A DNA stretch of 64,000 nt from Pontiella sp. (GCA_050290185.1 JBNKHE010000005.1:1-64000), one strand, 5' to 3'. Positions 1-9,826 are shown, counted from the first letter of the stretch. Made by a program: numbers and translations. The notes: generated from the letters alone by a model not told the origin.

Positions 1-153
1 TATATCCTTAAAGGTTTTTCTTTCATCATCCGTTGCGTTGAATTCACGATATGTGCCGTATACGACATGATGACAAGCGCAGAATATTCCTACGGGCTTC
101 CCGGTTTGGCCGTTGTATCGGGCTTGAATGCGTACGTATTTCTTTGCTTCCAT
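1..153 (-). CDS. Gene cassette 6, hypothetical protein (5' part only, truncated by window edge)
   Basis: ATG at 153 shortly after the attC R' box; hand-translated open frame MEAKKYVRIQARYNGQTGKPVGIFCACHH... to position 1. Confidence 0.8.
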   Translation of the reverse strand, partial: MEAKKYVRIQARYNGQTGKPVGIFCACHHVVYGTYREFNATDDERKTFKDI

Positions 154-171
154 AATATCTTATTTTTCTAC

Positions 172-262
172 AGATAACGTTTGGTGTGACCCGCCCGGCA
201 CAGAACCGAATGGAACGAAGAAAAACGCGCTTTACCGGGTAGGGTCCATGCCCTGGTTCGCT
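172..262 (-). repeat. attC site (cassette 5)
   Basis: Minus strand AGCGAAC-CAGGGCATGGACCCTACCCGG...CCGGGCGGGTCACACCAAAC-GTTATCT. Confidence 0.95.
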
Positions 263-264
263 TT

Positions 265-543
265 TTATTTATTAGGGTTTCTTTTTTTGATTTCACTCAG
301 AGAAAGCTGAGGAGAGAGGGACTCTTTTGAATATTGATACCAATGATATTCCCTGATCTCAAATAATCCATCGTAATCATTATCGAGGAATCCATAATCT
401 GCATCTTCGGTTAGTTCATATTCGTAAAAAATGTAATCAATTTTTCCATCACCATTCCGATCTTTCTCGGTAGTGATTACGGAAGTACAACCTGCCAGAC
501 AAAAGGCTGAGATGATGACCAATGATATTGATAGGTTTTTCAT
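265..543 (-). CDS. Gene cassette 5, small acidic lipoprotein with DxxxDG-type Ca-binding-like loops
   Basis: MKNLSISLVIISAFCLAGC lipobox; DRNGDGKID and DNDYDGLFE motifs; ATG at 543 preferred to TTG at 549. Confidence 0.8.
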   Translation of the reverse strand: MKNLSISLVIISAFCLAGCTSVITTEKDRNGDGKIDYIFYEYELTEDADYGFLDNDYDGLFEIREYHWYQYSKESLSPQLSLSEIKKRNPNK

Positions 544-551
544 ATTCAATT

Positions 552-638
552 AGCGAACGTTACTCATGACCCGCTTGGGAATCAGATGTTGCCTTCAAAA
601 CGGGCGTTGTCCAAGTAGGGTCAATGAGCTGGTTAAGC
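552..638 (-). repeat. attC site (cassette 4, divergent variant)
   Basis: Minus strand GCTTAAC-CAGCTCATTGACCCTACTTGG...CCAAGCGGGTCATGAGTAAC-GTTCGCT; the TAA stop of the upstream gene lies inside R''. Confidence 0.95.
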
Positions 639-1613
639 ATCCTTTGCTCTTTCTTCTTGGTCTTCTATTACAGATTCTAAAATCTTCCGATAAGCTGCTT
701 CTGTGATGTTGGGTAGATGCGGAACCGCAACTCGGTTTAAAAAATCGGAAATGTCATCATCCAGCCAAATCTGTCGAACTTGACTATTTTCACTGCCGGC
801 AGAGAAAATTCGTTCAACTTCTTTGAGTGAGAAGTAGGAATACTCATCCAGTTTTCCAATAATATTGTGCGTGGTGGCAAATGAACCTGAAGATGCTAGA
901 TCATCAATTAGTGCATCCTTATTCTTGTCAAAGGAAAATGCTACTCCATCAAAATGTTCGGCCATGAACTCGGACAGGGTGCGATAAACAAATAGCTTAG
1001 ATGACTTTTTGTCGTGCCATTCTTCTGAAAGAAATGGATGGACAGAATGTTCATTTAGTACGGAATAAAAATCTCCATCTGCACTAATTACATGAAGGTC
1101 TTCTTCATTTGGAACGGATTCTAAAAGTTGAATCCAGTTGATTGCGTCTCCGATTGAATCATTTTTCCCTGGAGGATTCCCGATAGCCATTCTAATGGTT
1201 GATTTTTGATAAATATCCTCTGTCGTAGAGATCGTTTCGTATTTCGCGAAAATATCTCCAATCAAACGATCTGCCATCAAGTTTTTTTCTGCAATGTCTC
1301 CATTGACTACTTTTAGAATTGCTTTGTGTTTGGATTGTAGCTCAGAGCAAAGGCGACGTAGTTCAGCTGATTCACCATACTCCTTCATGAAAGAAGGAAT
1401 CTGAGCGTTAAATTTTACATCCGTAAATCGTTTAAGGGCATCTTTGATTTTCGACTCACGGTTGCGCTTAAACTCATCGCAAACTTGCTCTGTAAGGTAC
1501 ACTGTTGCGGAACCATGCTCATGCGATGCAAACACATTGTTTAGTGCATCAAGCTCATCCTTTGAAAAGTGGTAGAAACTAAGAAGGATATTTGTGTCTA
1601 TAAATACATGCAT
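633..1613 (-). CDS. Gene cassette 4, PIN-like domain protein (DUF4935/PIN-like family), 326 aa
   Basis: N-terminal MHVFIDTNILL PIN motif, V..EF acidic residue, GDAINW and ISADGDF motifs; start set to 1613 because the ORF-track extension crosses the attC. Confidence 0.85.
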   Translation of the reverse strand: MHVFIDTNILLSFYHFSKDELDALNNVFASHEHGSATVYLTEQVCDEFKRNRESKIKDALKRFTDVKFNAQIPSFMKEYGESAELRRLCSELQSKHKAILKVVNGDIAEKNLMADRLIGDIFAKYETISTTEDIYQKSTIRMAIGNPPGKNDSIGDAINWIQLLESVPNEEDLHVISADGDFYSVLNEHSVHPFLSEEWHDKKSSKLFVYRTLSEFMAEHFDGVAFSFDKNKDALIDDLASSGSFATTHNIIGKLDEYSYFSLKEVERIFSAGSENSQVRQIWLDDDISDFLNRVAVPHLPNITEAAYRKILESVIEDQEERAKDA

Positions 1614-1624
1614 AATATTTTTTT

Positions 1625-1714
1625 GCTTAACGTTTGGTGTGACCCGCCCGGGAATAAACCGTCCGGCATGAAAATTGTGCGTTTTACCGGGTAGGGTCCA
1701 TGCCCTGGTTCGCA
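1625..1714 (-). repeat. attC site (cassette 3)
   Basis: Minus strand TGCGAAC-CAGGGCATGGACCCTACCCGG...CCGGGCGGGTCACACCAAAC-GTTAAGC; arms identical to attC at 172-262. Confidence 0.95.
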
Positions 1715-1719
1715 ATGTT

Positions 1720-2034
1720 TTATGATGATTCTCCAATGGCCTGACTGATCCCGTACAGACCTAACGAAATTCCCCCAATAAAGAGAATGGCGAAATCGAG
1801 TTTCAATATCGCTTTGAGCTTTCGGGATTGAGTATTCCCAATTTCATCACAGGTATCAAAGACTCGCTTAACAACTGTTCGATCACCCAAACGGAAAATC
1901 GTGCCTGCCGAAAATACCTCCCGATATTCATCGGAGAGTGTTGCCAGTTTCTTAAACAAAGCGAATACATTTGCCATTATGATCATGTGGAAAATGATCA
2001 GGACTACAGCTCCAATTATGATTGGTATCGGCAT
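1720..2034 (-). CDS. Gene cassette 3, small protein with two predicted TM segments, 104 aa
   Basis: ATG 2034 preceded by AGGA; hydrophobic N- and C-terminal stretches. Confidence 0.8.
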   Translation of the reverse strand: MPIPIIIGAVVLIIFHMIIMANVFALFKKLATLSDEYREVFSAGTIFRLGDRTVVKRVFDTCDEIGNTQSRKLKAILKLDFAILFIGGISLGLYGISQAIGESS

Positions 2035-2047
2035 CTTATTTTTATCC

Positions 2048-2136
2048 TGCGAACGTTTGGTGTGACCCGCCTCGGGATTGACTATTGGCACGAAGATTGT
2101 GCGTTGGCCGAGGTAGGGTCCATACGCTGGTTGGAA
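2048..2136 (-). repeat. attC site (cassette 2)
   Basis: Minus strand TTCCAAC-CAGCGTATGGACCCTACCTCGG...CCGAGGCGGGTCACACCAAAC-GTTCGCA. Confidence 0.95.
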
Positions 2137-2585
2137 GTTTCTTTGTTGCTAAGCATGAACCCCCATTTACTGATATATTCATCAATAGCGTCGCAATAAT
2201 TAAAAGATATCAATGTCCATAGGTTGTTATATTTCTCAAATGTTAATGTAATGTATCTCGTGGGTTTGGTGTAAAAAGCGTACGAGGCAATGAATAGACG
2301 ATCGGTTAACTGAAAAGTGCTTATTAATTCCCATCCTTCTGGTTCTGATATTCCCTGAATGTTAGTGCGCATTTTTGTCCAAAATGGATTCTCTTCCTCA
2401 CTGTTGCTTTTAATTATGAGGCCAGCTTGTTCTGCAGTCATTTTAAAGGCATCAAAATCTTGGTTCTGCATTGCCGAAAAAATTCGCTCAGCTACAACGG
2501 TGTAATCGTTTGTTGCGCAGTGTTGTGCATGTGCAAGATTTACAACTAAGATTAAAATAATCGTTATAATGCTCAGATTCTTCAT
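2082..2585 (-). CDS. Gene cassette 2, secreted hypothetical protein, 167 aa
   Basis: Signal peptide ending AHA-Q; AAGGA upstream; reading frame continues into its attC. Confidence 0.8.
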   Translation of the reverse strand: MKNLSIITIILILVVNLAHAQHCATNDYTVVAERIFSAMQNQDFDAFKMTAEQAGLIIKSNSEEENPFWTKMRTNIQGISEPEGWELISTFQLTDRLFIASYAFYTKPTRYITLTFEKYNNLWTLISFNYCDAIDEYISKWGFMLSNKETSNQRMDPTSANAQSSCQ

Positions 2586-2595
2586 TTATTCATCC

Positions 2596-2687
2596 TTCCA
2601 ACGAAATGGTGTGAGCTGCGCGGGACATAAACGTCTGGCACGATAGAAATTGCGATTTACCGCGTAAGCTCCATGCCCTGGTTGGAG
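2596..2687 (-). repeat. attC site (cassette 1)
   Basis: Minus strand CTCCAAC-CAGGGCATGGAGCTTACGCGG...CCGCGCAGCTCACACCATTTC-GTTGGAA; compensatory stem changes relative to the other attCs. Confidence 0.93.
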
Positions 2688-3070
2688 TTATTTAATTGTT
2701 TATTGGGGGATATATTCATAGTTCCTGAGAGACTGTCAGATGGTGAATTACATTTGAATGTATATGCGACGAATAGAGTTCCGTCATCCTGTTCATGAAA
2801 CTCAAGTTTCTCATACTTTTCGGGGTCAAATATGTTGCCAGCTTCTTCAGGAATAAAGGAATACAGAGTGTTTGCATCAGATGGCCAATGACCCTTAATG
2901 GATTGATAGCCCCAAAGAGCAACAGTGAGGTTCCAAAGTTGGCTTCCTGAATTGGTTATCTTTGTTGTAGCTTGCTGTAAATCATTTGGCTGATTTGTGG
3001 TCAGGTTGCTAGTGCCGCACCCGACTATGGTCAGCAAAAACAAACTCAGAATATAAATCATCCCATTCAT
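2657..3070 (-). CDS. Gene cassette 1, hypothetical lipoprotein, 137 aa
   Basis: Lipobox IVGC after hydrophobic leader; GGAG upstream; frame ends inside its attC. Confidence 0.8.
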   Translation of the reverse strand: MNGMIYILSLFLLTIVGCGTSNLTTNQPNDLQQATTKITNSGSQLWNLTVALWGYQSIKGHWPSDANTLYSFIPEEAGNIFDPEKYEKLEFHEQDDGTLFVAYTFKCNSPSDSLSGTMNISPNKQLNNSNQGMELTR

Positions 3071-3076
3071 TTACTA

Positions 3077-3113
3077 CTCCAACAGTTGATTAGGTAGAAA
3101 TGAATTCTGCCTA
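3077..3113 (-). promoter_or_regulatory. attI recombination site
   Basis: Minus strand ACCTAAT-CAACT-GTTGGAG = L box, 5-nt spacer, R box, the same geometry as attI1; GTTGGAG complements R'' CTCCAAC of the first cassette; no attC hairpin upstream. Confidence 0.88.
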
Positions 3114-3157
3114 GTTATTTCCTTAACACAATGTTTTTTCTGTGTTAGGTAGAATTT

Positions 3158-4540
3158 ATGAATAAAGAGTGTGATAAAAAATATAAAACAAAGAAAGAGT
3201 GTGAGTTTTGGACGGGATATGCTGAAAAGCTTAATGAAAAAGGGATTTTAGGGCATAATGCGGAGTGGCATGTCATCCGAGCTCAAGAGTTTGTATATGG
3301 TTTGGAAGGTCTTAAACTGTACGATGTCAATTCTGCCTATCTCGATTCCTATATCTCTGAATTAGGCAGAAAGCCTGAGTGGGTTAGTTGGCAGGTGCGG
3401 CAGGTGATTTCGGCTCTGCGGATTCTGTTTGTGGAAATGACACGGCTGGATTGGCCTAGGTCGTTTGACTGGAAAGGTCGAATGGCTGGCTGCCAGGATT
3501 TGGCGCCGACCCATGCAACTTTGGCGCGGGATATTCCGACAAGACCGTTGCAAGAGGCCAATATTAAGTTTGCGGAACCGACTGAGGAAGCTCTGCAGAA
3601 AGTGCAACGGTTGAGGGAGGTTATGCGGGTTCGCGGGATGTCGATCCGTACGGAGCAGACGTATGAGGAGTGGGTTCTTCGGTTTGTTTCTTTTTGTGGC
3701 GGCGGCTTTCCTGATGATCCGTTGAAGGTGCGTGATTTTCTGGAGTATCTGGCCCTTGTTCGTCTGGTTGCGCCGGCGACTCAGGCGCAGGCCTTGAATG
3801 CGTTGGTTTTCATGTATGGTCAGGTGTTGGAAGAGGACATGGGCGATTTGGGCTCGTATCGGCGTCCTGCGCGCAGGAAACGGTTGCCGGTGGTGTTGTC
3901 GAGGATGGAGGTCGATGCGTTGCTTAAGCAATTGAGCGGGAGGCAGGCTTTGATGGCTACGCTGTTGTACGGTGCAGGGTTGCGTTTGATGGAGTGCATC
4001 CGGTTGCGTGTACAGCATATCGATTTTGACAACCACTATATTACGGTGGTGGATGGCAAGGGAGGGAAGGATCGTCGTGTTCCGTTGCCGCAGCGTGTTG
4101 TTGAGCCTCTTCGGGCTCATCTTGTGGAAATGGAGCGGCAGCACGTGGAAGATTTGCGGGCAGGATTTGGGGCGGTGTATTTGCCGGAGTCGTTGAGGCG
4201 CAAGTCTCCGAATGCCTGCAGAGAATGGAAGTGGCAGTATGTGTTTGCCTCGTCGAGGATCAGTACGGATCCGCGAACAGATATGAAACGACGACATCAT
4301 ATTCATGAGAACAGTCTTCAGAAGGCGGTTAAGGCGGCTGCTGAAAAGGCCGGAATTGAGAAGCGGGTGACGTGCCATACGTTGCGGCATTCGTTTGCGA
4401 CCCATTTGCTGGAGGGCGGCGCGGATATCCGGACGGTGCAGGAGTTGCTGGGGCATTCGGATGTTTCGACGACGATGATTTATACGCATGTGATGAATCG
4501 GCCTGGGGTTTCGGTGCGGAGCCCTTTGGATTTGTTGTAG
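3158..4540 (+). CDS. intI: Integron integrase (long form with N-terminal extension)
   Basis: [39 protein letters not shown] catalytic motifs plus the IntI-specific insertion [25 protein letters not shown]. Confidence 0.97.
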
Positions 4541-4635
4541 CGACGGGGTTTGCGGATTGAGGTTTGCAGGGCTCGAGTGCCGTAACGAAACGATTGCTGT
4601 TGAGTGCGCTGAAGCCCTCTGTGGCTGGTTGCCGG

Positions 4636-6234
4636 TTACCTGAATTCGGGCAACGCCCATATTGACGGGCCAGCGTATGGGTAGTTCCTGCGCGTGGACT
4701 CTACAAGTAATTCCAGTTGTTTAGCACCTTGTGGTATTTCGATATGGATGGAAACCGTTTTGAAACCATATTCACGCAGAGGCTTGGAACAATAGACCTG
4801 CTTTCCATCAATATTGATCATATAGCGCCATCTGCCGCTAAAGTTGCCACTCGGAGCAACCCCCCAAGCGGAAAATGTTTCGGCCCACGAGGGAATTGCA
4901 TAGGCCACTTTGCTTGGAGCGGGCGCGTAAATGTAATCGGCCACTTCTTTTCCGTTCACTTTAACCTGCGAGCCTGGATTTCGGCATTTTCCGTAGAAGA
5001 CTCCTTCGCCAACGTATTTCGGGTTGCCCGCCGAATGCTCCAGCGCAGCATCCTGCCCAAAAACAGTTGGTCCGTATCCTAACCGTGTTTCATCGCCAGA
5101 TCCTAACCGAGTCTCTGATGAACCGTCCTGATCGCCGGAGTCCTGTTGTGCTGTTAATTTTGGCCGCGGAGCTTTATTTGTTCCTGAAAATTCAAACAAG
5201 GGCAAAAGCCACTGCGTTCCTCCCTTGGCATTTACTACAGGGGTTGTCCAATCGCGAATCAGTAGTCTCGAGTTGGATAGTTCCGGAGCCTCCCAACCAT
5301 GTGAACCAATGCGTTGCACAAGCAATTTTCTCTTCGATTTAGGTGATTTACGGATAAACAGATAATCGGTAACTCCCTCATTGTCCGTTTGCGGAATAAG
5401 AATTGCAGGCACACGTTCCATGGCAAGATCAATGAATATCCGGCTCTCACGCCTAGCGAGTCGCTCTGTTTTCTTGGCGTCATCCATGAGATCCATGCGG
5501 TTACATTCAGTCAACTCAAAGGCAATACTGGAGTTGTTCAGGGCTTCCTTTAATTCAATGACATTTTGCGCATTGCTTGGTAGTAGTTGCTGAAGCGTCT
5601 CAATCAGAGCGGTGCAATCGATGATTTTGTCCCCAAGAGGTTTGGGTGGAGTAAATGCGATAGCTGAACGCGTGTACTTTTCAACCTCTCTGTATGGAGC
5701 AGAATACTCAACTCCCCATGGGTTGTAAAAATACATTTCTTTACGCGTGTCGCTATAACCGATCACCACTAAAGCATGGCCGCCACCACTACCTCCAAAA
5801 TTATCCCCAGCCCATGTGATATACATCGGACCCTCATGCACCAGTGCTTCCTTAAACCGAGGCAATGTTTTCTTTATAAACTCATCTACATTTCCGGGAG
5901 TATGCTTGTTTTCAATTTGATGATACCGGAAACCAAAATTCTCCATAGCGCGCGCCATATCCATGGGATTTGTCCCATAATCATCCATAGAAGCTTGCGA
6001 TGAGAGTTCGGCCATTTGCTGCTGATCCGTCTTAATGCCATGATATTTTGCAATCCACGCCCCTGCAGCAGGTACACAATATCCTTTTCCCACCTGAACA
6101 ATCTCAGGCAGGTCGTGAAGCTTGAAGTTGAGCGGTAAATCATCCGGCTTCGCCGTTTTTTCCTCCTGTGCTAACGAACACAGGGTCAAACCGATAGTTG
6201 TGAGTATAATGAAAATTCCGGGGTGCTTTTTCAT
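4636..6234 (-). CDS. Secreted C39-like (papain-fold) peptidase with C-terminal NPCBM/NEW2-like domain
   Basis: Signal peptide; Q...YCVPAA, GHALVVIGY and FYNPWG motifs; C-terminal IYAPAPSKVAYAIP...IDGKQVY...LELLV...IWALP. Confidence 0.7.
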   Translation of the reverse strand: MKKHPGIFIILTTIGLTLCSLAQEEKTAKPDDLPLNFKLHDLPEIVQVGKGYCVPAAGAWIAKYHGIKTDQQQMAELSSQASMDDYGTNPMDMARAMENFGFRYHQIENKHTPGNVDEFIKKTLPRFKEALVHEGPMYITWAGDNFGGSGGGHALVVIGYSDTRKEMYFYNPWGVEYSAPYREVEKYTRSAIAFTPPKPLGDKIIDCTALIETLQQLLPSNAQNVIELKEALNNSSIAFELTECNRMDLMDDAKKTERLARRESRIFIDLAMERVPAILIPQTDNEGVTDYLFIRKSPKSKRKLLVQRIGSHGWEAPELSNSRLLIRDWTTPVVNAKGGTQWLLPLFEFSGTNKAPRPKLTAQQDSGDQDGSSETRLGSGDETRLGYGPTVFGQDAALEHSAGNPKYVGEGVFYGKCRNPGSQVKVNGKEVADYIYAPAPSKVAYAIPSWAETFSAWGVAPSGNFSGRWRYMINIDGKQVYCSKPLREYGFKTVSIHIEIPQGAKQLELLVESTRRNYPYAGPSIWALPEFR

Positions 6235-6296
6235 ATCTGTTTACTCTTTGCTTATACGTACGGGCTGCGCGGGGCTTATGCGTGGGGCATGAAATA

Positions 6297-6871
6297 TGAA
6301 ACGGGGCCGGCAGGATGCCGGCGGTACGAATACGGGCGGATTTTCGATGAACCCAAGACGGGCTCGGCCGCCCTTCGACTTGGCTCAGGGCAAGCTGCCG
6401 CCCTTGGTCTTGCTTCTACCTTCCTGGTGATACGTGCCGCGGCGCATAATCATTTGCTACATACTAATAATGATTCGATCCGATGTTCAAATTATAAACC
6501 CAACGATTCTTTGTGTTCATGAATGAAAAGTGAAAGGGGGATTTGTTGTTGGGTTGTTGAATGGAGGTTGTTTGGGGAGGGAGAGAAGACGGAGGGCAGA
6601 AGACGGAGGACGGAGGGGGGAATTGGACTGATCGGACATATTGGACGGATTGTTTGGGAGGAAGGTCGAAAACGACAGAGCGGACTGACCGGGGTTGGGG
6701 GGCCTTCGATGGGACTCAGGGTAGGCCCTTCGACTTTGCTCAGGGCAGGCGGGGGCATCCGCCTTCGCTAAAGCTATGGCGGACAAGGGGGGATTTGTTG
6801 TTGGGTTGTTGAATGAGGGTTGTTTGGGGGGATGACGCTTGAAACGGGGCCGGCGAGACGCCGGCGGTACG
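6297..6871. repeat. Cluster of REP-like palindromes, direct repeats and short tandem repeats
   Basis: 32-bp palindromic unit at 6297-6328 and 6840-6871; CCTTCGA..CTCAGGG units at 6371, 6703 and 6726; ~44-bp direct repeat at 6534-6577 and 6785-6829; hairpin 6759-6782. Confidence 0.85.
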
Positions 6872-6894
6872 GGCAAGGGGGGCAGAGGGGGGAT

Positions 6895-7272
6895 TTAAAT
6901 CGGGCTTTTTTTATCTGCCTTCTCTGCTGGTGCTTCAAACTGGGCGCAGGTGTCGGTGGCCTGGACTTCTTTTTTGTGCCGGGCGCAGAATTGGGTGAAG
7001 GGATTGACGATGTAGTTGGCGCAATAGCGGCATAGCCGGCGGTTTTCGTTGTCGTCGAATATTTCGATGGCGGCTGAGCGGTCGGCTTCGGTGAAAATGA
7101 CCGGGTCGGATTTTTTTTCTTTGAACGGCACATCGCTTTCGGAGGCATATTCAAAGCCGCAAGCGGTGCAGGTCAGTTTTTCGCCGACTTTTGAAAAGCC
7201 TTCGTAGATGGCCTCGCGTTTGATCAGGGTATCTGCTCCGCATTTTCTGCATATGATTTCCACAGCCTTCAT
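6895..7272 (-). CDS. Cys-rich hypothetical protein (probable Zn-binding)
   Basis: CRKC, CTAC, CRYC and further Cys/His residues in 125 aa. Confidence 0.75.
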   Translation of the reverse strand: MKAVEIICRKCGADTLIKREAIYEGFSKVGEKLTCTACGFEYASESDVPFKEKKSDPVIFTEADRSAAIEIFDDNENRRLCRYCANYIVNPFTQFCARHKKEVQATDTCAQFEAPAEKADKKSPI

Positions 7273-7535
7273 GATGTGTATTGCGTAATGTCTACCCGGT
7301 AAAGAATCAATCTGAATCGTTCGCGAGACTGTATTTTGTGCGCCGAGTGGATGTGGTGCATGTCTCCCGGCCGGGGCGTGCGTTCCGCATGTGGAGCAAC
7401 CCGCACTATAACTTTGAGGAAGAGCAGGAGATTATTCAGGAGACTTAAGACCCATGTGCCTTTCGGGTAGAAAATGGAGGTGGTTTCCTGTAGACCTAAC
7501 GAACAACTATAACAATCAACCTCGGAGAGGTTTTA

Positions 7536-8873
7536 ATGCGCAAGATTTCTGATTGGGGGAATTTCCCGGTTATCGAGGCCGAGGTAAACGGCTTTGATAC
7601 AACGGACCAGCTACGAAAACAGTTGGATACGCCGGGAGAAGTCATAGCGTTCGGCAACGGGCGCTCGTATGGCGATGCATCGCTGCAAAACCGGGTTCTG
7701 CTGACCCGCCGGTTCAGCAAGTTTCTATCTTTCGACGATACCTGTGGAGAGCTGAGCTGCCAGGCCGGTGTGCTGTTGTCGGAAATCCTGGATGTTTTCG
7801 TGCCACGCGGATGGTTTCTGCCGGTTACACCGGGAACGAAGCTGATTACGGTGGGCGGTGCGATTGCCGCCGATGTGCATGGGAAAAACCATCATGTGGA
7901 CGGCTCGTTTGGCCAGCATATCATTTCGATGGATGTGATGCGTAATGACGGTACTGTGATCACTTGCTCGCCAACGGAGAATGCCGAGTTCTTCAAGGTT
8001 ACGGTGGGGGGCATGGGGCTCAGCGGGATTATACTGAATGCCACCTTCCGCCTGCGGAAGATAGAAACCGCCTTTATCAAGGAGGAAACGGTACGGGCTG
8101 AGAATCTCGGGGAGATCATGGATTGCTTCGAGGCATCAAGTGATTGGACCTATTCCGTGGCGTGGATCGACTGTCTGGCCAAAGGGGATTCCCTGGGGCG
8201 CAGCATTATGATGCGCGGCGAGCATGCCCGTCCGGAAGAGCTGCTCAATGCGACGCATAAGCATGCTCCGCTGGTTCCGAAAAGGGGATTGAAACTGGAT
8301 ATTCCATTCCAGTTTCCCAACTTTGCCCTTAACCATTGGACGATGCAGGCATTCAATTTTGCGTATTATAACAAGTGCAGGCCCGGAACCCATAAAGGCG
8401 TGGTCGACTATAACAGCTTTTTCTATCCTCTCGATGCGATTGACAACTGGAACCGGATCTACGGGAAGCGGGGGTTTACGCAATACCAGTTTGTCATTCC
8501 CAAGGAAGCGGGGCGCGAAGGCATGACGAAGATTCTAACGCGGATCACAGCAAGCGGGCTGGGGTCGTTCCTGGCCGTACTCAAACTGTTCGGCAGGCAG
8601 GAGAGTTTCATGTCATTTCCGATGGAGGGCTATACGCTGGCTCTTGATTTTCCGATTTCCCATAAGGCGATGGATTTGTTCAAGGAGCTGGATGCGATGG
8701 TGGCAGATTATGGTGGTCGGCTTTATCTGGCGAAGGATTCCCGTATGGATGCGGCCTTGTTTGAGAAAACCTATCCGCATGCGGATGAGTTCCGGCAGGC
8801 TATTTCCATGCTCAATGAGGGAACCACCAAGTTTGCTTCGTTGCAGTCCAAGCGCATTGGGATCACGAATTAG
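7536..8873 (+). CDS. FAD-binding oxidoreductase, DprE1-like (polyprenylphosphoryl-ribose 2-oxidase family)
   Basis: GNGRSYGDAS, PVTPGT, TVGGAIAADVHGKNHH, GGRLYLAKD motifs. Confidence 0.88.
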   Translation: MRKISDWGNFPVIEAEVNGFDTTDQLRKQLDTPGEVIAFGNGRSYGDASLQNRVLLTRRFSKFLSFDDTCGELSCQAGVLLSEILDVFVPRGWFLPVTPGTKLITVGGAIAADVHGKNHHVDGSFGQHIISMDVMRNDGTVITCSPTENAEFFKVTVGGMGLSGIILNATFRLRKIETAFIKEETVRAENLGEIMDCFEASSDWTYSVAWIDCLAKGDSLGRSIMMRGEHARPEELLNATHKHAPLVPKRGLKLDIPFQFPNFALNHWTMQAFNFAYYNKCRPGTHKGVVDYNSFFYPLDAIDNWNRIYGKRGFTQYQFVIPKEAGREGMTKILTRITASGLGSFLAVLKLFGRQESFMSFPMEGYTLALDFPISHKAMDLFKELDAMVADYGGRLYLAKDSRMDAALFEKTYPHADEFRQAISMLNEGTTKFASLQSKRIGITN

Positions 8874-8913: not shown

Positions 8914-9645
8914 ATGAAGAATGTATTGATATTAGGGGCAACGTCGGACATGGCGCAGGCGATCGCAAAGAAATATGCCGCGGAGGGATGGAGCCTGACG
9001 CTTGCCGCGCTGGAGCCGGAGCTACTCGAACCGATTGCGGGTGATCTGCGGGTGCGAACCAAGACGCCGGTTGAAACCGTGGAATTCGATGCGACGGATT
9101 TTGAATTGCACCGTGCATTCTACGATGGTTTGGAAACCAAGCCGGATGCCGTGATTTGCGTGTTCGGCTATATGGGCGATCAGATGGCGGCACGAATCGA
9201 TTTTGAGGAAGTGCGGCGTACCATCGACATCAATTTTACCGGGGCGGTATCGATCCTCAATATCGTGGCGGATGATTTTGAGAAACGGGGTCATGGGGCC
9301 ATTGCCGGAATCAGTTCCGTGGCAGGAGACCGCGGCCGCCAGAGCAACTATATCTACGGGTGCGCCAAGGCCGGTTTTTCGGCCTATCTGTCGGGGCTTC
9401 GCAACCGTCTGGCCAAGGCTGACGTACATGTTATGACGGTGAAACCGGGTTTTTGCCGCACCAAGATGACGGAGCATTTGGAGCTGCCTGCTGCGCTTAC
9501 GGCCGAGCCGGAACAGATTGCAAATGCTGTTTTCGTCGGCCTGGAAAAGAAGCGCAACGTGGTCTATACGCTCTGGATGTGGCGCTGGATCATGCTTGTC
9601 ATTTGCCATATTCCTGAATTTATCTTCAAGAAGATGGGGATGTGA
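8914..9645 (+). CDS. Short-chain dehydrogenase, DprE2-like
   Basis: ILGATSDMA, SSVAGDRGRQSNYIYGCAK (YxxxK); follows the DprE1-like gene. Confidence 0.88.
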   Translation: MKNVLILGATSDMAQAIAKKYAAEGWSLTLAALEPELLEPIAGDLRVRTKTPVETVEFDATDFELHRAFYDGLETKPDAVICVFGYMGDQMAARIDFEEVRRTIDINFTGAVSILNIVADDFEKRGHGAIAGISSVAGDRGRQSNYIYGCAKAGFSAYLSGLRNRLAKADVHVMTVKPGFCRTKMTEHLELPAALTAEPEQIANAVFVGLEKKRNVVYTLWMWRWIMLVICHIPEFIFKKMGM

Positions 9646-9650
9646 TGGGT

Positions 9651-9738
9651 GTGATGAGTGAGGCGTGATGAGTGAGACGTGATGGGTGAGACGTGATGGG
9701 TGAGGCGTGATGGGTGAGGCGTGATGAGTGAGGCGTGA
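9651..9738 (+). repeat. Tandem repeat, six copies of 14-mer GTGATGRGTGAGRC
   Basis: Units read directly at 9651, 9665, 9679, 9693, 9707 and 9721. Confidence 0.95.
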
Positions 9739-9826
9739 CTGATCTGCCACACTCGTTACGAGTTAAACATCACTCCCCGTGTCTGGATGAAAAGCGGCAC
9801 AGAAGTGCCGCACTTTCAGGATGACC

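Follow-up and report, generated by a model that had tools for sequence, protein, structure and literature searches.

The integron at the start of the contig

The stretch of DNA analysed here (the window, 64,000 nucleotides of a Pontiella sp. genome, GCA_050290185.1 JBNKHE010000005.1:1-64000) opens with an integron in which the integrase gene, intI, is divergent from an array of gene cassettes, with the attI insertion site by the start of intI. Contig C5 of genome G000, a member of the Kiritimatiellales (contamination 0.09%), starts at the first base of the window, and the array therefore runs off the contig start at base 1. Located on a contig of 287 kb, the array is chromosomal and large, with homogeneous attC sites, and the window is the integrase-bearing head of a large chromosomal integron system. 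Within this system one integrase probably serves several docking platforms in trans, some of these platforms being relics. The features of the locus are as follows, lengths of open reading frames (ORFs) being given in amino acids (aa).

3158..4540, plus strand: intI, encoding a 460-aa integron integrase with a predicted second N-terminal core-binding (SAM-like) four-helix domain
3331..3371, no strand assigned: inverted pair of attI-type 9-bp boxes in intI (3331-3339 and 3363-3371), 248-288 bp from the crossover; putative binding sites
3077..3155, minus strand: attI; crossover G/TT at 3083/3082, L box 3091-3099, inverted box 3105-3113, upstream box 3146-3154
2602..3082, minus strand: cassette 1; ORF 2657-3070, 137 aa, running into its own attC; no family found; second context in reads
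2596..2687, minus strand: attC of cassette 1 (outer cores included); model score 81.4 bits, the site being in the training set
2054..2601, minus strand: cassette 2; ORF 2082-2585, 167 aa; no family above cut-off
2048..2136, minus strand: attC of cassette 2; hairpin, core pair, covariation
1631..2053, minus strand: cassette 3; ORF 1720-2034, 104 aa; no family found
1625..1714, minus strand: attC of cassette 3; shares 99% identity with another site of the genome
558..1630, minus strand: cassette 4; ORF 633-1613, 326 aa; PIN-domain protein, candidate anti-phage nuclease
552..638, minus strand: attC of cassette 4; stop codon TAA overlaps R''
178..557, minus strand: cassette 5; ORF 265-543, 92 aa; no family found
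172..262, minus strand: attC of cassette 5; hairpin, core pair, covariation
1..177, minus strand: cassette 6, first part only; core GTTATCT; its ORF begins at 153 and is truncated at the contig end

An initial annotation, made from the sequence alone, had described this integron as intact, a term that does not suit an array cut at the contig start after a partial sixth cassette (1-177). The attI site is delimited by several observations. Specifically, the 75 bases between cassette 1 and intI are kept upstream of intI in the related genomes G007, G036 and G032, and conservation stops at the same GTT in the intI loci of all four genomes. This region contains an inverted repeat (3087-3117) and three 9-bp boxes beginning at 3091, 3105 and 3146. 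Cassette DNA begins exactly at the attI GTT, read contigs break at 3083, and the core of the first cassette matches.

The integrase

The intI ORF (3158-4540) scores 405 bits against TIGR02249, for which the cut-off is 265 bits, and its product has the catalytic residues R276, K301, H407, R410, H433 and Y442, invariant across 73 aligned homologues, as well as an insertion specific to integron integrases that is absent from the two Xer proteins of the same genome. The top fold match of the structure model is the integron integrase 2a3v (Z 29.4, root-mean-square deviation 2.2, 293 aligned, residues 144-436, 46% identity). The nearest named homologues belong to the Kiritimatiellales, including Tichowtungia aerotolerans at 64%, and in a phylogeny (FastTree on 323 columns, with the genome's two Xer proteins as root and the IntI3 row shortened) the window protein forms one Kiritimatiellales clade with P0002, G007, G036 and G032 (support 0.97). 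Fold, family score and homologues together uphold the proposal that this is a chromosomal integron, its integrase intact, from a lineage that has been little studied. The best match among classes 1-3 is IntI3, at 49% over residues 145-460, and the best 5000 matches among plasmid records all fall below 60% identity, so that the protein is not IntI1, IntI2 or IntI3. Searches for related loci in genome contigs returned mostly distant IntI proteins (42-60%).

The N-terminus is longer by about 140 residues. Residues 12-110 form a confident four-helix domain in the structure model, and residues 8-112 can be aligned across 79 columns with the core-binding domain at 140-232 (E 3.7e-5, probability 71%; control 0.3%). 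As judged from this alignment and the modelled fold, the 460-aa IntI has a putative duplicated core-binding domain. Compared with the PDB by sequence, the N-terminal extension gave only noise (E 1.6-1.7), the fold search having covered the residues beyond 1-140. The long IntI type is widespread, with Gamma-, Zeta- and Deltaproteobacteria among the matches listed; one such protein (48% over residues 18-458) is encoded on a 485-kb plasmid of Candidatus Thiodictyon syntrophicum.

G000 contains a second IntI-like gene (C3:254447-255805), whose 452-aa product is 44% identical and also has a long N-terminus. This gene sits, as read from translations, between hisF and a his-like ORF and is of the In0 type, with no attC within 17 kb. 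A tblastn search of G000 for intI at E<1e-3 returned only C5:3158, C3:254447 and two Xer matches, and no further fragment.

attC sites and cassette cores

The five attC hairpins proposed for the window are present on the minus strand at 172-262, 552-638, 1625-1714, 2048-2136 and 2596-2687, as are the compensatory stem changes cited in their support. The hairpin arms are indeed shared; the left arm quoted as common is exact in two of the five sites, the others having 2, 2 and 3 mismatches. The sites display the AAC/GTT triplets, R box, L box and 5/6-base central spacer of attC anatomy, and the bottom strand has unpaired, extrahelical bases at positions 16 and 23 with six pairs between them. This is the canonical attC spacing, universal conservation in attC being limited to the AAC/GTT triplet (both as stated in PMC5027507). 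The first extrahelical base is C, A or T, not G. The initial annotation had named a lack of attC-type extrahelical bases as grounds for rejection, and these bases are present. In a structure that was drawn by hand on an alignment of 37 bottom strands (G000 supplied 33, and three other loci four), and evaluated on those same sequences, 93.5% of cells are paired and 12 of 19 pairs show two-sided changes, a level reached by none of 500 shuffles and compared with 31-46% in slid controls. The pair beside T23 is mismatched in 27 of the 37 sites. The energy minimum bulges the neighbouring base instead, and a two-bulge L stem appears in the energy minimum of three of the five window sites. Folding energy is unexceptional relative to shuffles (circle forms, z 0.0 to -3.0; array forms, z +1.0 to -1.3); it was set aside as too weak a proof of the hairpin, for which the evidence is covariation. 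Rfam gave no match in window positions 1-8000 at E up to 1, indicating that the hairpins are not a curated RNA family.

An iterated profile search of the G000 contigs recovered 172 attC hits on 49 contigs. The set includes 125 full attC, 113 of them distinct, and column identity averages 72-74% in a diverse subset. The notion that the integron has an attC family of its own therefore needs rewording: the family is real, and it is not private to the locus, since it fills about five G000 loci and is present across the genus and order. The 11 taxon-specific attC models of Ghaly 2021 (PMC8352920) are, as given there, for taxa that do not include Verrucomicrobiota, and a match to one of them, such as the Planctomycetes or Deltaproteobacteria model, is possible. 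Two groups of aberrant sites were also observed. Older attC at C4:245365-257648 and C1:3862, concentrated at C4, have in common a terminal-loop insertion of 45-60 bases that brings them to 128-141 nt in total. Within the window, the right half of an attC (6256-6300, minus strand, 35 of 45 bases as in a family member) lies just upstream of a gene for a 532-aa peptidase C39/NPCBM protein (4636-6234), which converges on intI; this half-site is possibly an old cassette beyond the integrase.

In all five complete cassettes, as first reported, the 5' core is the reverse complement of the cassette's own R'' (GTTGGAG/CTCCAAC, GTTGGAA/TTCCAAC, GTTCGCA/TGCGAAC, GTTAAGC/GCTTAAC and GTTCGCT/AGCGAAC), which has a joint probability of about 3e-9 given the genome's own core frequencies. 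Genome-wide, 99 adjacent attC pairs (97 without N, 93 non-redundant) were available, and core and R'' match at all four outer bases in 82 of the 93 cassettes, against a permutation mean of 4.1 and a maximum of 13 in 10,000. Four of the 11 mismatches differ at the last base only; several of the other seven are long enough to hide a missed attC. The eighth base also pairs in 41 of the 82 cassettes (20.7 expected), and R'' agrees with the core next in the array at chance level only (21, 56, 26 and 21 of 80 by position). The departure of four of the five window cores from GTTRRRY is the norm in this genome, where 33 different cores occur, 67 of the 82 depart from that consensus, 15 fit it, and GTT-V-G-V-H describes them better. 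Since IntI joins the folded bottom strand at G/TT, each cassette has its own R' at the 5' end and, at the 3' end, the R'' that is complementary to it, and the chain of matching cores follows; only GTT is exchanged, leaving the outer four bases free so long as they pair within the cassette. The core chain is thus ordinary integron bookkeeping, a property of each cassette singly that holds in any order and at any age, and it provides no evidence of activity, contrary to what the initial annotation had drawn from it. Near several array tails (C1:6502, C4:246808, C7:245252, C150) one and the same sequence, beginning GTTCTTGCGGAC, follows an attC, and the core chain breaks there.

Array heads elsewhere in the genome

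The G000 library comprises at least 134 different cassettes, 134 being the count both of distinct 5' starts and of distinct 3' ends, and its arrays meet unique DNA at five heads and five tails; three heads (C5-left, C3 and C5-right) and three tails (C1, C7 and C14) are open. At the C3:5889 head the attI is near-identical to that of the window (E 5e-9, agreement at 19 of the last 22 bases); an HU-like gene precedes it, and no intI fragment is present. Hits at C4:243291 and C10:17791 are weaker, yet lie exactly at array starts, and the fifth head, C5:286443 (C5-right), resembles attI by eye. The core of the first cassette matches at four of the five heads. Behind C3 and C5-right, 11 of 12 attC are 93-100% identical to sites elsewhere; for four of the five window sites the best identity elsewhere is 83-87%. 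With two or more attC and no intI nearby, the C3, C4 and C5-right arrays correspond to the definition of an attC-site cluster that has no integron integrase (CALIN); C10 has one attC.

attI copies in related genomes

A 15-letter attI pattern was run on 41 genomes and then on 66 genomes of the order, with a reversed-motif control; most of these genomes are incomplete, and sites in kin genomes are not independent. The pattern gave 28 hits in 11 of the 41 genomes (control, 1) and 41 hits in 23 of the 66 (control, 2), 11 of the 23 having two or more. An ORF follows within 45 bases at 26 of the first 28 hits, compared with 129 of 500 control sites, and an exact core complement lies near the ORF stop in 13 of 28, compared with 1 of 500. 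The window's own attI failed this downstream test because its ORF reads into the attC. Of the 23 later hits, 21 were retrieved, none of which had been used in motif building; examined with a slightly wider window, 15 have an ORF and seven a core complement. 

The resulting 49 sites comprise five with a full intI, 13 with a 5' fragment (one at a contig end) and 27 with none within 1-2.5 kb; two of the rest have too little DNA and two show another pattern. Intact intI is lacking at 39 of the 49. Two further boxes outside the searched motif are found at 26 and 25 of 45 distinct sites (background 1.1% and 0.3%), and the C3 head has both. These shared boxes, together with the 12 sites that still carry the 5' part of intI, show descent from an intI-linked attI.

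Individual genomes illustrate how such copies may arise. In G007, five attI copies are 98.9-100% identical over 300-413 bp, one is followed by a whole intI, and the first cassette differs at each; the four cut copies end at or near a common repeat. An outward-facing repeat beginning AAAAGGGTCA or AAAGGGGTCAG is located at the intI cut point and at far array ends (L151, L152, L153, L154 and L101 in G007, L191 in G049, L167 in G021), beside ORFs that we take to be transposase-like. In G032 the complete attI-intI unit is present twice (99.9% identity across 1467 bp); the unit ends shortly after the stop codon, and a third copy is truncated. The downstream neighbours of intI differ among G000, G007 and the two G032 copies, and a match of any kind is present in only 14 of 23 good-quality relatives. 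In the single-contig genome G047, tandem attI copies 3 kb apart (C1:3193539 and 3196511, L172) each head cassettes. Separately, antisense group II introns occupy attC positions (L103 16591-16660, L151 10599-10886, L189 6505-6574, and L183) in arrays of G032, G007 and G052, as detected with Rfam, and of G061, by motif only; the intron motif was not found in G000.

Boxes within intI

The two boxes inside intI have the same 9-mer as the attI boxes and are located in the coding sequence of the extra N-terminal domain. Among 27 long-IntI loci with upstream DNA, 18 have a match to the right internal box, at 8 or all of its 9 bases, in the upstream region of the same locus (control, 16 of 351), and an inverted pair at 8 of 9 or better is present in 13 (3 of 351 control windows). 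All 13 belong to this order. Four variants of the internal boxes alter both arms together and follow the attI boxes of their own locus. This covariation and enrichment point to DNA-level selection on the box pair for binding. Binding there may serve synapsis or self-repression. The functional attI probably reaches about 290 bp into intI via the distal pair, and the extra core-binding domain may touch it, which together form the weakest step of the proposed mechanism. Additionally, 11 of 12 intI fragments in relatives extend to codon 72 or further, and three stop at codons 72-73; a halt of truncations at the distal box pair is no more than suggestive, because shorter fragments are harder to detect and the G007 copies are not independent.

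Reads and activity

Four DNA runs from one study (X1-X4) cover the stretch. In X4, one contig runs from the attC of cassette 1, whose right end is unique in the assembly, into a cassette placed on C56 by the assembly (26 of 26 letters), and a second joint puts an attC arm ahead of the 5' end of cassette 1. X1 keeps the window junction after cassette 1, and contigs of X2 and X3 end at 2600. The assembled order after cassette 1 may accordingly be one of several. Depth over cassette 1 is raised 1.7-2-fold (contig depth, not copy number); since no second copy of any window cassette is present in the assembly, this is at most a hint of a collapsed copy. A joint of 258-3078 in X2 was not assignable and was not used. 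The X4 junctions, better though indirect evidence of activity than the core chain, fit copy-and-paste cassette shuffling, which yields such junctions (PMC8024014), or a strain mixture.

Probable service of several platforms by one integrase

The preferred explanation begins with an established mechanism, in which IntI acts at G/TT to join a double-stranded attI to the attC of a circular cassette, the latter in the form of its folded bottom strand. The library is spread over about five loci, of which at least one, and probably three or four, are headed by attI without intI, and these platforms would be loaded and shuffled in trans by the window IntI. They would arise when an attI-intI unit duplicates and intI is then lost from its 3' side, stages of which are seen in relatives. 

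Several observations weigh against parts of this explanation. The C4 and C10 heads are not significant alone (E 2.5 and 8.7), the profile gave no match to C5-right at E<20, and at C4 the first core is mismatched and most attC are decayed or lengthened. The second IntI-like gene at C3:254447-255805 could serve some sites. In G030 (95% complete), two attI sites with cassettes occur with no integrase above cut-off, and the sole IntI above cut-off in G047 is of the short type, 0.9 Mb from attI; platforms can, in other words, outlive their integrase. The different first cassettes at the G007 copies could be older than the loss of intI. The read junctions come from single contigs with sides of less than 30 letters, in one study that is possibly the source of the assembly, and strains may have been mixed. 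As for the internal boxes, the right-hand one also codes for a conserved L-G-R, such that protein constraint may contribute to its conservation, and the 27 attI-motif sites without an intI fragment, hence without distal boxes, indicate that these boxes are not needed at every platform. Finally, a scan of 3000-3700 found no sigma-70-like sites, and three LexA-box patterns had no match near intI; the promoters of this lineage may differ. That the retained intI fragments keep the cassette promoter Pc is accordingly no more than a supposition.

The same data permit other explanations. The window could be an ordinary sedentary integron accompanied by relics, that is, by duplicates with decayed intI whose arrays are frozen CALINs, perhaps donors and no longer recipients. 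The graded intI truncations of the relatives, the G030 sites that persist without an integrase, the decayed attC at C4 and the diverged C4, C10 and C5-right heads all speak for this, and loss of intI is a listed origin of CALINs (PMC4889954). At C3, however, the boxes are kept although intI has gone without trace and the spacers have diverged, and the attC there are as fresh as any in the genome and fresher than four of the five window sites; an intact IntI in the same cell is moreover diffusible, and according to 10.1101/2025.06.18.660453 CALINs are mobilised in trans. We therefore regard an explanation by relics throughout as unlikely. 

Convergence is more improbable still. The satellite heads would then be secondary hotspots (attG-type), or sites of the second, divergent IntI-like gene, with a coincidental likeness to attI. 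In its favour, IntI does insert cassettes at genomic GWT sites and hotspots (10.1101/2022.09.11.507474), C5-right is only loosely similar to attI (11 of 17 bases by the crossover, by eye), and the C3:254447 gene has no attC nearby; the two extra boxes at the C3 head and at many sites in relatives, and the 12 sites that retain the 5' part of intI, tell against convergence and make it unlikely for C3 already. That pooling of strains or species in assembly or binning has inflated the count and created false heads is scarcely credible: 42 of the 49 attC-bearing contigs are shorter than 10 kb, C15 and C20 have four identical cassettes in common and the reads hold alternative junctions, but each of the five heads is set in unique DNA, on a contig of 130-335 kb, contamination is low, and single-contig and 6-contig relatives show equal multiplicity. 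Some inflation of the count is nonetheless possible. 

Service of several platforms in trans by a single integrase, some of them relics, thus remains the probable explanation. A broader proposal for the clade is rather doubtful, if conceivable. IntI with two tandem core-binding domains would act on a bipartite attI, whose distal box pair inside intI would form a looped or self-regulating synapse; the attI-intI unit would copy itself to new chromosomal sites and lose its catalytic part, so that a single enzyme comes to run a network of platforms for docking and expression. The near-complete pairing of the 33 different cores, in part out to an eighth base, would on this view preserve a usable record of the way in which cassettes originate.

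Cassette cargo and neighbouring features

The cargo is mostly uncharacterised, as the initial annotation had supposed. Cassette 4 is the sole window cassette with a family: its protein matches PF16289 at 68.6 bits (cut-off 32) and, in part, PADLOC PDC-S34 (residues 228-296, E 2e-13). No resistance family was matched among the window cassettes. At 14 other array loci, 19 of 94 ORFs have a Pfam match at E up to 1e-4 (98 found, four duplicates removed; small contigs beyond left out), and PADLOC matches were obtained for two of 99 cassette ORFs. Cassette bodies have 40% GC, compared with 54% for the genome, and a median of 391 bases. Cargo in other arrays includes an HSDR_N-like domain (L114:2815-3666), an IrrE/CapP-like peptidase (L115:5898-6635), a GTPase of a two-gene cassette (L117:6916-7767), a Clp protease-like protein (L115:1052-1759) and Hfx_Cass5 (L122:90-389). 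Elsewhere in the window, an intergenic region at 6284-6882 contains several two- and three-copy repeats of 26-56 bases that are REP- or MITE-like, and a 14-bp tandem repeat of about seven copies (9625-9752) lies between two genes.

Relation to known integrons and significance

The window locus is an integron and works like a sedentary chromosomal one, such as that of Vibrio cholerae (IntIA/VCR, 2a3v). Shared with these are the IntI fold, the divergent arrangement of intI and array with attI by the intI start, an attC with an R box and an L box, a spacer of 5/6 bases and extrahelical positions 16 and 23, and more than 100 low-GC cassettes with promoter-proximal ORFs, mostly of unknown function. 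The system described here differs in its 460-aa IntI with a putative second core-binding domain, in attC of about 82 nt between triplets with a first extrahelical base of C, A or T in place of the usual G, in cores that follow GTT-V-G-V-H over GTTRRRY, and in a library split over several attI-headed loci. With mobile integrons of classes 1 and 3 it has the chemistry in common (IntI3 being the nearest, as above), whereas it is chromosomal, has other attI and attC sequences and has no resistance-family match in its window cassettes. In attI1, two accessory IntI boxes, DR1 and DR2, lie near the core (PMC8946536); among the accessory boxes here is an inverted pair that lies within intI, some 250-290 bp away. 

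Tyrosine recombinases of the lambda Int type have an extra N-terminal domain and arm-type boxes far from the crossover. In the present case the extra domain appears to copy the core-binding domain and the distal boxes, which are putative binding sites, have core-box sequence.

The other four G000 loci resemble CALINs (Cury 2016, PMC4889954), corresponding to the definition or to its single-site form, with the difference that the clusters here start at recognisable attI copies. CALINs are defined regardless of attI because attI is unknown for most integrons (PMC4889954). Their listed origins are off-target insertion, loss of intI and rearrangement (PMC4889954, PMC8618304), and attI sites are stated to have no useful rate of insertion into genomes (10.1101/2022.09.11.507474). 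For the Verrucomicrobiota, integrons have been recorded (PMC8618304), and the main text of a 2026 survey of 898 Kiritimatiellia genomes has no integron passage (10.64898/2026.10.06.756941). Our literature search, which lay within open papers (subscription papers and supplements being outside it, and the IntegronFinder supplementary tables possibly listing these genomes), found no paper on Kiritimatiellales integrons, several attI sites with one integrase, a duplicated domain or boxes inside intI. The core chain stressed earlier is ordinary, and it is the satellite attI sites, the internal boxes and the putative duplicated domain, features that the initial annotation was not placed to see, that are new around a known kind of integron.

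With 82 cassettes and 33 self-complementary cores in one genome, the library is a natural data set on cassette creation, the means of which has been called unknown (PMC4889954). CALINs are usually read as remnants or off-target insertions, since attI cannot be searched for. Here it can be, and in this order most of its copies are without an integrase; many 'integrase-less' clusters may therefore be live first-position sites. If these readings hold, the putative duplicated domain and its covarying internal boxes would offer a direct test, beyond the Vibrio and class 1 models, of the workings of attI specificity and of integrase control, and live platforms would multiply the number of cassettes that a cell can express at once.

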